Source of the DNA: a virus
Lineage: Duplodnaviria > Heunggongvirae > Uroviricota > Caudoviricetes
Length of the DNA: 64,000 nucleotides
IMG/VR virus record: IMGVR_UViG_2721755710_000007
Location: 1 to 64,000 of that record
Direction: 5' to 3' (one strand)
Positions 39,215 through 63,171 of this stretch are shown here, one piece after another (within the stretch, counting starts at the first letter, position 1; each line of letters starts with the position of its first letter). The position numbers and the translations under genes were made by a program. Under the pieces are notes generated by a model that was not told the origin of the DNA, searched no databases, and was given only the letters and a program-made list of their open reading frames with translations.

Positions 39215-39754
39215 CTACCACCAACTGCTAGCTTTCTTCTCTCTAGCTTTTCCTTCGCTTTGCAGTAAATCTTTACTTCCTGTAGAAATATTTCTATTTG
39301 CATCAGCCTCAGACTGAATTACATCTGTCTTAGCTGCTCTCTCCTTCAACTCCTGCTCTATAAAATCGTTTTCTCGCTGGACACGAGCCGCTTTTGCTTG
39401 CAGTTCGAGTTTCATGCTTTCGAGTTGCAGCTTGCGAAGCTCATCCTCATAAGCTTGATCTCGCTTCTTGTCATTTGCTAGCTCGGCTTCTCGTTTCGCT
39501 CTACGTTCATTTTCTGCAGCAACACGCTGTTTTTCGCGTGCAGCAGCGGCAGATGCTGCTTTTTCTCTTCTAATACGTTCAGCTTGTGCTTGTTGGCGAA
39601 TAAGTTCTTTTCTGGCATCCTCAGCTTGCTGCTCTTTAGCTCGCCCTTCATTTTCCGCTTGAGCAATAGCAGCAATTTGACTTTGCAACGAGTTAGCCAA
39701 GGCAGTGCCTACACTAAACGTAGAAAAGATTAGAAATAAAATAATTTTATTCAT
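39215..39754 (-). CDS. secreted coiled-coil protein (179 aa)
   Basis: N-terminal signal peptide, then Ala/Glu/Arg/Lys-rich coiled coil. Confidence 0.45.
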   Translation of the reverse strand: MNKIILFLIFSTFSVGTALANSLQSQIAAIAQAENEGRAKEQQAEDARKELIRQQAQAERIRREKAASAAAAREKQRVAAENERRAKREAELANDKKRDQAYEDELRKLQLESMKLELQAKAARVQRENDFIEQELKERAAKTDVIQSEADANRNISTGSKDLLQSEGKAREKKASSWW

Positions 39755-39757
39755 AAA

Positions 39758-40279
39758 TTATTTCTTTTCTGGACAAGTAGCATTTGGCTGAATTCGAGTT
39801 TCATTATCTTTAGTTGAAATAAGCACAGCAAGCCCCGTTGTAAACTGGCATGCTTTACCAACTTGAGTTGAAGTGAACACCTTAGTTCCTTCTTTATAAG
39901 TCAGTGAAACACCTTCAACAATTGTTTTATCACTAACCAAAGAACCAGCCGCTGCACCAAGAGCCGCACCACCAGTACCGCCAGCTACAGCACCCAGTGT
40001 CGATGTGCCTTTAACATTATAACCGGCAACGCCCCCAGCAACAGCTCCCAGTACCGCACCAAATGTCTGTGCCGCTTCTTTATTAGCTTTATTATCAACT
40101 TTCACTTTAGCTGGAAGCACAGAGATAATATTGACTGTCTTTGTTTCCTGCTTCGAATTCAATTGAGCGGTATCATAAACATCGGCAGCATAATCAGCAC
40201 CGCTAGATTGACACCCAGAAAGAAGAATTGCAGATACAACAAGAGCGCATAAAGTATACTTTTTAGACATAAGAATCAT
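39758..40279 (-). CDS. lipoprotein with glycine-zipper region (173 aa)
   Basis: Lipobox LSGC; GAVAGGxxG repeats. Confidence 0.5.
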   Translation of the reverse strand: MILMSKKYTLCALVVSAILLSGCQSSGADYAADVYDTAQLNSKQETKTVNIISVLPAKVKVDNKANKEAAQTFGAVLGAVAGGVAGYNVKGTSTLGAVAGGTGGAALGAAAGSLVSDKTIVEGVSLTYKEGTKVFTSTQVGKACQFTTGLAVLISTKDNETRIQPNATCPEKK

Positions 40280-40560
40280 CCCAGAAAAACAAAAACCGGC
40301 GAGAAGTTACCACGAGAACGGAAAGTAAACAAGAATACTCCCATTGACTTATATCAAATAATCAACTTTTTATAAGCTATCCCTAACTTATTGTGTATAG
40401 CTGAAAAGTCAGAGATAAGTTCACCATCTGCATTATTTCTTAAGTTAATAGTTTATTGCTAACTTAATTTATGTATCGACTATTGATATCCATCTTAAAG
40501 TAACAATATCCCTCTGCATTATTTTTCATCACAAATAATACATCTATTGCACTACGCTCA

Positions 40561-40577
40561 CCTGCTCTAATAAATTT
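40561..40577 (+). promoter_or_regulatory. C1 operator-like site upstream of c4-icd-ant
   Basis: cctgctctaataaattt in AT-rich promoter region. Confidence 0.45.
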
Positions 40578-40769
40578 GTATTTTTAAGTCGCGAATGCTA
40601 TCTTTTCGCATCATATTGACCTTTTAATCGTTCAGGCTTATAGTTTCGCCGTCGTAGCAAATTCTGCGACCAGGTTTGACAGCCTGAATGATTGTGCGGA
40701 CAACCGCAGATTTCCGATATTGCGGTATTTTTGTGTCCGTTAAACCGCGTTACGCCCAAATTATGGTGG

Positions 40770-40855
40770 GGCGTGATGGGGAGGCTTCGGCCTGCTGGTT
40801 TCACAATCGCCAGTCTGTCAACCCTGTCACGTCCTGCCACCTGTTTGACAGCGGG
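40770..40855 (+). ncRNA. c4: candidate c4 antisense immunity RNA
   Basis: Segment containing tcacaatc and ctgtcaa, complementary to paired targets ttgacag/gattgtg at 40668-40688 and 40845-40880; boundaries approximate. Confidence 0.4.
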
Positions 40856-40891
40856 TAGCAGGTTGTTAAACCTGATTGTGAGGCCGTAACT

Positions 40892-41113
40892 ATGGTTAAT
40901 GCCAATCCTTGCGCACGCCCAGAATTCATCTGGCGTTTCTATTCCTGTAAAAAACACCACTATCACTTCGTTATCGCAGCAACTGAAGACGAAGCACGCT
41001 CTCAATTGCCTGATGGCCCCTGCATTTTTACTGCCCGTTTTTCAACTAACTCGCGCAATTCACTTAGTTACTGGAGCCTCCCCTTCTCTGCCGACGTTCA
41101 GGGGGGTTTATGA
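40892..41113 (+). CDS. icd: Icd, interference with cell division (73 aa)
   Basis: 73-aa ORF overlapping the start of ant, downstream of the candidate c4 region. Confidence 0.65.
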   Translation: MVNANPCARPEFIWRFYSCKKHHYHFVIAATEDEARSQLPDGPCIFTARFSTNSRNSLSYWSLPFSADVQGGL

Positions 41114-42144
41114 AAACACCTCTCGTCACCCGTAATGAAATAGCCGAAGCGATCGCCTTGCATACTGCCTGTATGCCGACACGGGAGATCCCCGGCGCAA
41201 TTGCTAACTATTTCATGATAACCAGACGTTTTTATACCCGAACAGATAAGGCTGTGATCAACAGGCTACTGATAGCCGAGATCAGGGATTATTTGATTGA
41301 ACAAGGACGTCTACGTTACGCAACAGTGGCAGCAGAAATGAGAAAGGAGGCACATAGAATGACCGGTAATAATTTAAATGTTGAAAAACCAGCACCTGTT
41401 GCTTCAGCTACGCCAGCACCAGCCCTGAATGTCATCCCCAACACCGGAGACACAATCGACAGCCAAACATTGTTGAAGATGGTCAATGAGGCACGGAAAT
41501 TATGTAGCGAAAAACCAGTTCGCAACAATGATTTCATTGCCAGAGTTAAGGATGAGCTTGAAGGAGAAACCTACGAAATTTTCGTAGGTCAAAAAAACGG
41601 CGCAGAAATAGATATTATAACCATGACCTACAAACAAGCCCTGCGAGTTGCCGCGCGCGAGTCAAAAGCGGTCCGCCGTTCGCTGATCGACAAACTGGAA
41701 GAATTGCAGCAGGCAAACTCCCCTACCCCATCGATCCCCCAAACATTACCAGAAGCTCTACGCCTGGCTGCCGAGTTGGCAGAACAGAAAATGCAGTTGG
41801 AACAACAGCTGGTGGCCGCAGCCCCTAAAGTCGATTTTGCCGACCGGGTATCAGCGGCTAATGGAATCCTGATCGGGGACTTTGCAAAGGTCGTTGGACT
41901 TAAGCAAAACGCCCTTTTCTCATGGTTGCGCCAGAACGGCATTCTCATGGCTTTTGGTGCGCGCAAAAACGTACCGCGCCAGCAGTACATTAACGCCGGG
42001 TATTTCACGGTGAAAGAAGTGGTGCTGGATGATGAAAATGGCTACCAGATACGGCTGACGCCCCAATTAACGGGTAAAGGCCAGCAGTGGTTAACTCGCA
42101 AGCTACTTGATGCTGGTTTGTTAAAACCAGTAGCAATAGGTTAA
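41110..42144 (+). CDS. ant: antirepressor Ant (344 aa)
   Basis: C-terminal region shares a motif with the next gene (LPEALRLAAELAEQK...); position after icd as in P1. Confidence 0.65.
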   Translation: MKTPLVTRNEIAEAIALHTACMPTREIPGAIANYFMITRRFYTRTDKAVINRLLIAEIRDYLIEQGRLRYATVAAEMRKEAHRMTGNNLNVEKPAPVASATPAPALNVIPNTGDTIDSQTLLKMVNEARKLCSEKPVRNNDFIARVKDELEGETYEIFVGQKNGAEIDIITMTYKQALRVAARESKAVRRSLIDKLEELQQANSPTPSIPQTLPEALRLAAELAEQKMQLEQQLVAAAPKVDFADRVSAANGILIGDFAKVVGLKQNALFSWLRQNGILMAFGARKNVPRQQYINAGYFTVKEVVLDDENGYQIRLTPQLTGKGQQWLTRKLLDAGLLKPVAIG

Positions 42145-44279: not shown

Positions 44280-44402
44280 TACAATCGTTGCGGGTGCTTG
44301 AGGCTATCTGCTTCAGGCATGACCCGAAAAGCAGATAGAAGAAAGCCCCAGATAACATTACGCGTCCTGCAAGACGCTTAACATTAATCTGAGGCCATAT
44401 CT

Positions 44403-44609
44403 ATGCTTAGCATACGTAGATTAGCCTCTTACCGACCAAAAGGTCAAGGAGAAGCAGGCTATGAAGCAGCAAAAAGCGATGTTAATCGCTCTGATCGTCA
44501 TCTGTCTAACCGTCATTGTGACGGCACTGGTAACGAGGAAAGACCTCTGCGAGGTACGAATCCGAACCGGCCAGACGGAGGTCACTGTCTTCACAGCCTA
44601 CGAATCTGA
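44403..44609 (+). CDS. mok-like overlapping reading frame
   Basis: 68-codon ORF overlapping the hok-like gene in another frame. Confidence 0.4.
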   Translation: MLSIRRLASYRPKGQGEAGYEAAKSDVNRSDRHLSNRHCDGTGNEERPLRGTNPNRPDGGHCLHSLRI

Positions 44610-48223: not shown

Positions 48224-49813
48224 TTACTTAATAAGCAGCGGTACGCCCTGGATACGACGGGCTACGCCAGTCGGGCAGCAGGCCCAGACTACTTCCCATT
48301 TATCGAATTCCGCCTGCGTAACTTTCAGCACATACGGTTCTGTACCGTCAGCATCAGGATCACGAGGAGCCACCAGAGCGCCGGAGGCGACAAAGCGATC
48401 TAAAAGTTTGGTCATCCCTTTAGTCAGGCCAGCCGCAGTAATACCGTCCGGGCTATGCTTCATCTGTCGGGCTAACTGGACAAAGAAACGGCTGATTGCA
48501 TTCATCAGGGATGGGACGTGCTGGAAGTGCAGATAGTTATCCTGCGTGCAGCAAGTTAAAGCATCGTCGATGATCATCTGGCCAGAGGTGCCAACAGATA
48601 CTTTATTGAGACGGCCCTTGACCATTGCTTCTTCGTCCGGGGTATCTTCCGGATACAGCGGTTGAATTGACGCACGAGCAATGACGGCACGTTCTTCACC
48701 AGCCGGTGAGTAATGCCAACCGCCGACATCAGAGTTTTTCTTGACGCCACGAGCTTTCGCCGCATACGCCGAGCCAGACAGACCGAAGACCACACGGGAT
48801 TGGGTCCATTTGTCTTTGCAGGAGAACGGGAAGTGATAGACAGCACAGCTTACATAATCGGTACCAAGTAAACCGGTATCTTCAACAGCAGAGATCGCTT
48901 CCGTGTACGTCAATGTCGGTTTGACATCAAAGAAGCCATCAATCAGGCGATCTGCACAGATTTTACCTAATGCGGTGATAGCCGCATTGTCATAGCAGCC
49001 CAAGCCAAGAACAGCGGTGTACATGTACGGCGCATTATTCAGCACTTTAACCGCACGCAGGTAAGCAGCGGTTGAGATTTTCGACTGATCGCCATTGGTA
49101 CCGCCAGTGAATGCCACCGATTTTTTATTTGTTACTTTCGCTGTCGAAATCAGCTCTTCATTAACAACCGCACGCAGATATTTAGAACGGGCTTCCAGAG
49201 CCGTAGGCAGATAACACAAGCGGCCCATGTCATCTTTCGCTTCTTCCGCCAAAGACACAGTGTGTGTCTCCAGGGTCGTTACCACACCGAGCGAAGTCGT
49301 CTGGGTCAGTTTTAAGAGGAAGCGTTCATTACCCGCGCTGTCCGCTGTTGCCGTTTCGATGGTTAACTCACGGGTAGGTGAAATACACGGATCACCATCA
49401 TCAACGTAGATAGCAAAGGCTTCGCCGCTATCAAGTTCAATTTCAGAACCGTATGGCAACGCACTGTAAGCCGGTTCGCCTGATTCATCGAACATAATAA
49501 TCGGGAACTTCGCATCATCCGGAACAGCACGGACAACATAACCAGACGTTTGCTGAATAGCTTCGTACACATGGCGAATTGGTTCGAACTGTGAGCCGGA
49601 AGACGGCTTCAGCGGTTCGCCGAGAACATCTTCGTAATTGGACTCAGTAACCGCAAGAACAGTAAACGGCTTGCCACGCGCAAATACGCCAATACCAGCC
49701 CACAAGCTGCTATTTAATGCAACACCGGTAGATAACGTCGCATCGGCATTGATCGGGCTAACCGCGACGCCGGATGCATTACCTAATGACTGTTGAATTG
49801 AATATTGAGACAT
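48224..49813 (-). CDS. contractile tail sheath-like protein (529 aa)
   Basis: Size and position match P1 gene 22 upstream of the capsid-like gene. Confidence 0.55.
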   Translation of the reverse strand: MSQYSIQQSLGNASGVAVSPINADATLSTGVALNSSLWAGIGVFARGKPFTVLAVTESNYEDVLGEPLKPSSGSQFEPIRHVYEAIQQTSGYVVRAVPDDAKFPIIMFDESGEPAYSALPYGSEIELDSGEAFAIYVDDGDPCISPTRELTIETATADSAGNERFLLKLTQTTSLGVVTTLETHTVSLAEEAKDDMGRLCYLPTALEARSKYLRAVVNEELISTAKVTNKKSVAFTGGTNGDQSKISTAAYLRAVKVLNNAPYMYTAVLGLGCYDNAAITALGKICADRLIDGFFDVKPTLTYTEAISAVEDTGLLGTDYVSCAVYHFPFSCKDKWTQSRVVFGLSGSAYAAKARGVKKNSDVGGWHYSPAGEERAVIARASIQPLYPEDTPDEEAMVKGRLNKVSVGTSGQMIIDDALTCCTQDNYLHFQHVPSLMNAISRFFVQLARQMKHSPDGITAAGLTKGMTKLLDRFVASGALVAPRDPDADGTEPYVLKVTQAEFDKWEVVWACCPTGVARRIQGVPLLIK

Positions 49814-63016: not shown

Positions 63017-63089
63017 TGATGGTGTAGCTCAGCGGTTAGAGCGGTTGACTGTTAATCAACGGGTCGATGGTTCAAATCCATCCACCATC
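63017..63089 (+). tRNA. tRNA-Asn (anticodon GTT)
   Basis: Cloverleaf folded by hand: acceptor GATGGTG/CACCATC, anticodon loop CTGTTAA, T-arm GATGG-TTCAAAT-CCATC, then CCA. Confidence 0.85.
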
Positions 63090-63094
63090 GCCAA

Positions 63095-63167
63095 TGCCGG
63101 TTTAGCTCAGTTGGTAGAGCGCCTGCTTTGTAAGCAGGATGTCAGCGGTTCGAGTCCGTTAATCGGC
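63095..63167 (+). tRNA. tRNA-Thr (anticodon TGT)
   Basis: Acceptor GCCGGTT/AATCGGC, anticodon stem-loop CCTGC-TTTGTAA-GCAGG, T-loop TTCGAGT, then CCA. Confidence 0.85.
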
Positions 63168-63171
63168 ACCA

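Follow-up and report, generated by a model that had tools for sequence, protein, structure and literature searches.

The c4 locus in the 64,000-nt stretch of phage DNA analysed here (the window) is very probably the immI immunity switch of a P1/P7-like phage-plasmid, in which the c4 antisense RNA pairs with the a2/b2 target boxes to block expression of icd-ant. Its allele combines an a box of P1 type with a b box of P7 type in all three copies. Both the switch and the way it works have been described before; what is added, modestly, is the mixed P1-a/P7-b allele and the combinatorial pattern of boxes found among its relatives.

The c4-icd-ant Operon

The operon in the window runs in the order C1 operator, two promoters, a1/b1, c4, a2/b2, icd and ant1/ant2, followed by kilA and repL. 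The layout is the same in P1, whose record lists the C1 operator, P2c4, P1c4, a1, b1, the 77-nt c4 misc_RNA, a2, b2, icd, ant1/ant2, PkilA, kilA and repL. The features are as follows.

40561-40577 (+): C1 repressor operator, CCTGCTCTAATAAATTT, equivalent to P1 Op51/Oc4; column-for-column alignment with the P1 (AF234172 48140-48156) and P7 operators
40575-40604 (+): promoter equivalent to P1 P2c4 (P51a), overlapped by the operator; P1 annotation via alignment, sequence identical to P1
40616-40644 (+): promoter equivalent to P1 P1c4 (P51b), TTGACC-17-TATAGT; 10 of 12 positions matched, coincides with the annotated P1 promoter
40676-40682 (+): a1 target box TTGACAG (P1 type); direct reading, equals the annotated P1 a1 site
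40690-40696 (+): b1 target box GATTGTG (P7 type); direct reading and P1/P7 alignment
40765-40841 (+): c4 antisense RNA, 77 nt; ends transferred from the P1 misc_RNA c4 (48343-48419) by alignment
40801-40808 (+): b' box UCACAAUC, in DNA TCACAATC (P7 type); c4 nt 37-44, in a 9-nt hairpin loop
40815-40821 (+): a' box CUGUCAA, in DNA CTGTCAA (P1 type); c4 nt 51-57, a 7-nt single-stranded junction
40845-40851 (+): a2 target box TTGACAG; direct reading and P1 annotation
40874-40881 (+): b2 target box GATTGTGA, GATTGTG(A), with its 7-nt core at 40874-40880; overlaps the icd Shine-Dalgarno sequence
40892-41113 (+): icd, 73 aa; open reading frame list, 71 of 73 residues identical to P1 Icd and likewise to P7 Icd
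41110-42144 (+): ant1 antirepressor, 344 aa; open reading frame list, Pfam ANT/KilAC with E 4.5e-31
41359 (+): in-frame internal start of ant2, with an AAGGAGG Shine-Dalgarno sequence; ant2 is annotated in P1

The C1 operator agrees with P1's AATGCTCTAATAAATTT at 15 of 17 positions, and the equivalent of P1c4 is the only sigma-70-like site that a promoter scan returned within 40300-41200. The Shine-Dalgarno sequence of icd, GAGG at 40880-40883, precedes the icd ATG by 8 nt and is overlapped by b2, and the icd stop codon overlaps the ant1 start in the ATGA at 41110-41113. Ant1 of the window shares 314 of 347 positions with P1 Ant1 and 326 of 348 with P7 Ant1.

A sequence-only reading of this DNA had proposed a c4 antisense RNA upstream of icd-ant, in the arrangement known from P1, within 40660-40885. 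The two segments that it regarded as complementary to the targets, tcacaatc and ctgtcaa, are found at 40801-40808 and 40815-40821, and its downstream target pair is present as described (ttgacag at 40845-40851, gattgtg at 40874-40880). The upstream pair exists as well and lies inside the proposed interval, but at 40676-40696; the position given for it, 40668-40688, was about 8 nt too far to the left.

Family Membership and Fold of the c4 RNA

The Rfam C4 model (RF01695) was matched over its full length (1-87) by 40759-40844 (+) with 68.4 bits, against a gathering score of 45, and the c4 region, in which all the annotated features can be aligned, shows 95-97% identity to the loci annotated as c4 in P1 and P7; the proposed c4 RNA is borne out by both. 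An Rfam scan of the whole 64-kb window found no second C4 locus. Alignment with P1 maps its annotated 77-nt c4 onto 40765-40841, and the only correction that it brings to the earlier reading is that the allele is neither that of P1 nor that of P7. By homology to P1, we infer that the mature RNA of this element ends at 40765 and 40841 and is processed.

RNA structure prediction, one of the checks named in the sequence-only reading, returned a stable fold in which a hairpin loop contains b' and a junction contains a'. The 77 nt fold with -42 kcal/mol (z = -4.58; none of 200 shuffled sequences was as good) into a long closing stem around two hairpins, one of them capped by UUCG. The other has a 9-nt loop that contains b' (nt 37-44), and the 7-nt single-stranded junction is exactly a' (nt 51-57), an architecture that matches the Rfam consensus. 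By every testable feature, namely the covariance score, the position in the C1-controlled leader of an icd-antirepressor operon, the unpaired boxes with b2 on the ribosome-binding site, and the a1/b1 leader, the window locus is a member of the C4 family.

A P1-Type a Box Combined with a P7-Type b Box

The c4 RNA of P1 is identical to that of the window at 75 of 77 nt and differs only at nt 41 and 43, within b'. The a box is the same in both (TTGACAG/CUGUCAA), whereas the b box of P1 reads GTTAGTG in place of GATTGTG in all three copies. P7 shares the layout and the b box (GATTGTG/CACAAUC) with the window, but its a box is TTAGCAG instead of TTGACAG in all three copies, with c4 nt 54 and 55 (a') differing; its c4 stem also has a G-C pair at nt 61, where the window has G-U. 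The complementarity noticed from the letters is thus conserved in P1 and P7, as the box sequences differ and each difference comes with matching changes in all three copies. Elements of the same immunity type would agree with P1 in both boxes or with P7 in both, and the window allele agrees with each in one.

The flanks can be compared in the same way. Megablast with 40300-41200 gave matches over the full 901 bp to JL22 (98.1%), RCS47 (97.2%) and P7 (96.9%), while the match to P1 (97.3%) begins only at query position 264, similarity starting at about 40563. Left of immI, P1 has the sim operon (simABC, superimmunity), whereas the window has two lipoprotein-like genes there; P7 has a left flank like that of the window, with upf50.0/upf50.5-like genes. 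The window genes on this side, at 39215-40279 (-), encode a DUF5384 protein and a weakly TraT-like lipoprotein.

The box combination of the window recurs in Escherichia phage JL22, which is 98.9% identical over the 250-nt c4 region and is the only record of the phage collection in which the P1-a/P7-b combination was found. It is also carried by about 60 P1-like plasmids of E. coli, E. albertii, E. fergusonii and Salmonella, in which the 250-nt region is 99-100% identical. Counted by database, identity of 99% or more over this region was seen for 59 of the 574 PLSDB plasmids with a match and for 60 of the 548 RefSeq E. coli records with one. Some c4 locus is present in 535 of 5426 complete E. 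coli genomes, nearly always plasmid-borne. With only one genome for each species in the set, a scan of representative genomes gave just 3 c4 loci. A 2.9-kb contig (JAFAFU010000019.1, our L126) in a metagenome-assembled genome labelled 'Bacillota bacterium' also contains an exact P1-type c4 core; the contig most likely comes from an enterobacterial phage-plasmid and contaminates this bin.

P1-like plasmids have in many cases undergone rearrangement or lost immI (PMC6906374), and the locus might accordingly be an inactive relic in a decaying phage-plasmid, its sequence kept by descent and its switch no longer working. We consider this very unlikely for the window, where the parts are intact throughout (operator, both promoters, all six boxes, c4 stem, icd, ant1/ant2, kilA and repL) and the boxes are perfectly matched; about 60 independent plasmids, moreover, have retained an identical 250-nt region.

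Box Covariation across Relatives

To the window and five phage reference records we added the loci found by an IMG/VR scan with the conserved c4 core, giving 125 c4 loci; in five of these, some boxes are cut off by a contig end and unreadable. The 125 loci have two types of a', CTGCTAA (P7; 77 loci) and CTGTCAA (P1; 48), and seven types of b': CACAATC (P7; 43), CACTAAC (P1; 25), CGTAAGT (24), CATGTAC (15), CATTCGT (15), CACAAGT (2) and CTTGAAC (1). The two a and seven b types occur in 12 combinations. The P1-a/P7-b combination accounts for 12 of the 125 loci (about 10%), including JL22, and sits on at least two flanking haplotypes, exemplified by the window and L030 on the one hand and L039 on the other. 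All readable boxes are exact complements of the a' and b' of their own locus, with b2 of L046 as the sole exception.

We counted pairs in an alignment of the 51 distinct 250-nt sequences. Between a1/b1 and c4, 100% of the cells hold standard pairs, 8 of 14 positions have changed on both sides (173 cells changed on both sides), and sliding the register by 1-3 columns leaves 27-39%. The figures for c4 and a2/b2 are 100%, 8 of 15 positions, 173 cells and 28-48%. Both a1 and a2 are complementary to a', and both b1 and b2 to b', in 51 of 51 distinct loci, and 6 of the 7 pair positions of b1 have changed on both sides. The bulk of the common variation of the transcribed region falls on two positions per a box and six per b box, with base counts mirrored in the three copies. 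The one G-U variant seen concerns a single locus and the U37 position, by which b' is extended.

Covariation of this kind is no proof of RNA-RNA pairing by itself, since three DNA sites bound by a protein would give the same pattern. The three a...b copies, two direct and one inverted, could be sites of a sequence-specific protein that the changes track, and it fits such sites that the covariation is pure Watson-Crick identity between copies, the one G-U variant aside. Against this, the operon has no candidate for a specificity protein, Icd being identical at 71 of 73 residues between elements with different boxes, and a single DNA-binding protein could hardly follow a and b boxes that assort independently into 12 combinations. 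The inverted copy, moreover, is located precisely where a very stable RNA fold is left unpaired, in its loop and junction, b2 lies on the ribosome-binding site, and action as RNA is established by P1/P7 genetics. In P1, c4 RNA made from a heterologous promoter reportedly represses without any phage protein. Protein sites are thus extremely improbable, and we read the boxes as RNA because of the match to a structured-RNA model, the placement of the boxes in loop and junction, the overlap with the Shine-Dalgarno sequence, and the experimental literature on P1 and P7.

The annotation of relatives raises another reading, in which the region encodes a small c4 repressor protein, from a 56-aa reading frame at 40688-40858 or a 65-aa frame at 40692-40889. 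Both frames are in the open reading frame list of the window, a 'c4' coding sequence is annotated in RCS47 and X15639, and JL22 has a hypothetical protein over the same stretch. However, both frames span position 40741, where a 1-nt indel is polymorphic (among 79 unique relatives, A in 46, a gap in 28 and T in 5), so that no reading frame is conserved over c4. The bulk of the common variation is in the mutually complementary boxes, a pattern that is not codon-like, the 65-aa frame has no Pfam match, and the stretch matches a structured-RNA model. With c4 repressors also described as RNAs in PMC8198154, a protein-coding c4 is effectively refuted. For the antisense RNA that we favour, chance as the origin of the box pattern can likewise be dismissed: a search of the 64-kb window for TTGACAG-N(5-30)-GATTGTG gave three matches and no more (two lie on the + strand and the third, in the c4 loop region, on the - strand) against 0.03 expected, at least three matches occurred in none of 100 shuffles, and the complements between the c4 boxes and a2/b2 are exact over 7 nt and 8 nt.

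Possible Reassortment of Boxes and Predicted Immunity Specificity

Deriving the window allele from P1 and P7 would take at least three exchanges, because the boxes follow each other as a1 (P1), b1 (P7), b' (P7), a' (P1), a2 (P1) and b2 (P7), and the count rises to about five because of neighbouring single-base differences. In this order, a1-b1...b'-a'-a2...b2, the gaps between an a box and the adjacent b box are only 6-22 nt. The box order and the exchange count point to extensive short-tract exchange, with selection keeping the sets matched. To reassort the boxes, several exchanges over very short tracts would be needed, possibly via mismatched, ant-constitutive intermediates such as L046.

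L046 (IMGVR_UViG_2565956613_000015) is the only mismatched locus among the 125: b1 and b' belong to the CATTCGT type, whereas b2 is GTTAGTG, the P1 type. A second c4 locus in the same genome, L077, has a b box of P1 type, the type of L046's b2. As L077 carries the matching type, L046 either arose by recombination between the co-resident loci or is a chimera of the assembly (its contig is 4.9 kb); if it is a natural recombinant, constitutive expression of ant would be predicted from its boxes.

Two c4 loci share a contig in three cases (L020/L055, L058/L066 and L017/L079), and in each their specificities differ; both boxes differ in two of the pairs and only the b box in the third. Some P1-like elements among the PLSDB records hold two or three c4 loci.

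We compared crude duplex energies of c4 with its targets. Cognate pairs have about -24 kcal/mol (-24.3 kcal/mol for the cognate pair); half-matched pairs, i.e., the window c4 on P1 or P7 targets and the reverse, have -17 to -22 kcal/mol, and the P1/P7 pairs known to be heteroimmune have -12 to -15 kcal/mol. The window allele is predicted to have an immunity specificity distinct from that of P1 and from that of P7. Tentatively, and with less confidence than even chances would warrant, we suggest a broader scheme in which the a and b boxes are independently assorting modules of a combinatorial RNA immunity code with at least 12 natural types (from 2 a and 7 b types), the window type being a common one, found in about 10% of loci, that is heteroimmune to P1 as well as to P7, and the leader serving as a decoy RNA or a c4-responsive attenuator. 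A full-text literature search found no paper describing the box combinations, and Gilcrease & Casjens 2018 may already catalogue them.

The a1/b1 Leader

Upstream of c4, two structured elements were recognised.

40638-40690 (+): c4-a1b1 leader motif with two hairpins; Rfam RF03163 'a1, b1 targets of C4', 55.2 bits against a gathering score of 46.7
40703-40732 (+): terminator-like hairpin ACCGCA/TGCGGT with a 12-nt loop (40703-40726), then TTTTT (40728-40732); from the leader fold

In the Rfam consensus, the second hairpin of the leader has an 8-nt loop that contains a1, and b1 comes immediately after it. The fold of the single sequence has both hairpins, the second stem being two pairs longer and reaching into the a1 box, which leaves a 4-nt loop. 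Since a1/b1 is under the same complementarity constraint as a2/b2, it is predicted to be a c4 binding site too. The terminator-like hairpin lies between b1 and c4; a terminator pattern scan did not report it, because its loop is longer than 8 nt. A small hairpin, GCGG-ACAA-CCGC at 40696-40707, has its first base in common with b1 and its 3' arm in common with the terminator stem, and one may speculate that c4 bound at b1 could by this route shift the balance towards termination. That the leader is a c4-responsive attenuator, or a source of decoy RNA, is equally speculation.

The isrK model (RF01394) matched the leader at 40651-40732, the terminator-like hairpin forming the 3' part of the match, with 43 bits (E 2.9e-7); this is below the gathering score of 50 and leaves the leader outside the family. 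The resemblance is probably one of distant homology. The matching part of the window leader consists of two hairpins and a terminator-like hairpin with a U run. IsrK, an Hfq-binding sRNA, belongs to the isrK-orf45-anrP region of the Salmonella prophage Gifsy-1; like the leader, it precedes a small open reading frame whose translation is coupled with that of an antirepressor gene (PMC4825925). The two also differ: IsrK activates translation of the antirepressor, whereas c4 represses it, and going by the published positions there is apparently no room for a c4 between isrK and orf45 (PMC4825925). A distant BLAST search against phages did not recover Gifsy-1, so that the link to IsrK is that given by the Rfam score.

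Proposed Mechanism

In the mechanism proposed for the window, the c4-icd-ant operon would be transcribed from its two promoters, one of them under the C1 operator, and the 77-nt c4 (40765-40841) would be cut from the leader of this transcript. Its long stem would display b', in the hairpin loop, and a', in the junction, as single-stranded boxes able to pair with a2 and b2, which follow shortly downstream in this transcript. Translation of icd would then be blocked, as b2 overlaps its ribosome-binding site, and because ant1/ant2 is translationally coupled to icd, no antirepressor would be made; the C1 repressor would then stay active, and lysogeny and immunity would be kept. Which c4 silences which operon would be set by the two variable positions of the a box and the six of the b box. 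Biere, Citron and Schuster are said to have found, in 1992, Rho-dependent premature termination when icd is untranslated.

A parallel is offered by the CI immunity RNA of the satellite phage-plasmid P4, which is of a different family and sequence. Like c4, it pairs with repeated complementary sites in its own transcript, but it acts by transcription termination, whereas c4 blocks a ribosome-binding site. The P4 CI RNA is, as c4 is, short and processed from the leader of the operon that it controls, and it is a hairpin-like substrate of RNase P (PMC5499578).

For P1 and P7, c4 RNA is known to act in trans as a repressor of Ant synthesis, and ant is fully repressed only with c4 besides C1 (PMC8198154, PMC8546580). 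Citron & Schuster 1992 (as cited in PMC8546580) describe c4 as an RNA of 77 bases that arises by processing, Hartmann 1995 (as cited in PMC5499578) its precursor as a substrate of RNase P, and Citron & Schuster 1990 (as cited in PMC8198154) the c4 repressors as RNAs. Expression of ant needs Icd (PMC8201110).

Annotation and Significance

With the switch itself being textbook P1 biology, the chief value of the window locus is correct annotation. The c4 RNA gene is absent from the annotation of the closest relatives that we inspected, JL22 and the PLSDB/RefSeq plasmids, which list icd only or a protein over c4 (in JL22 at L003:1390-1560).

Immunity specificity in the C4 family is written in two very short RNA boxes that come in many natural combinations, and about 1 in 10 complete E. 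coli genomes has a c4 locus. Given the box combinations, the differing types of co-resident loci and this prevalence, box type could predict superinfection and coexistence of P1-like phage-plasmids, including those with resistance genes. The natural c4 boxes are also ready-made orthogonal pairs of RNA repressor and target.

Further RNA genes were seen elsewhere in the window. Just downstream of repL, at 44292-44466 (+), the Rfam sok model (RF01794) matched with 113.9 bits against a gathering score of 59, which implies a hok/sok-type toxin-antitoxin module where P1 has rlfA/rlfB. Two adjacent tRNA genes lie at 63018-63090 and 63096-63168 (+), with Rfam tRNA scores of 74.5 and 72.3 bits.
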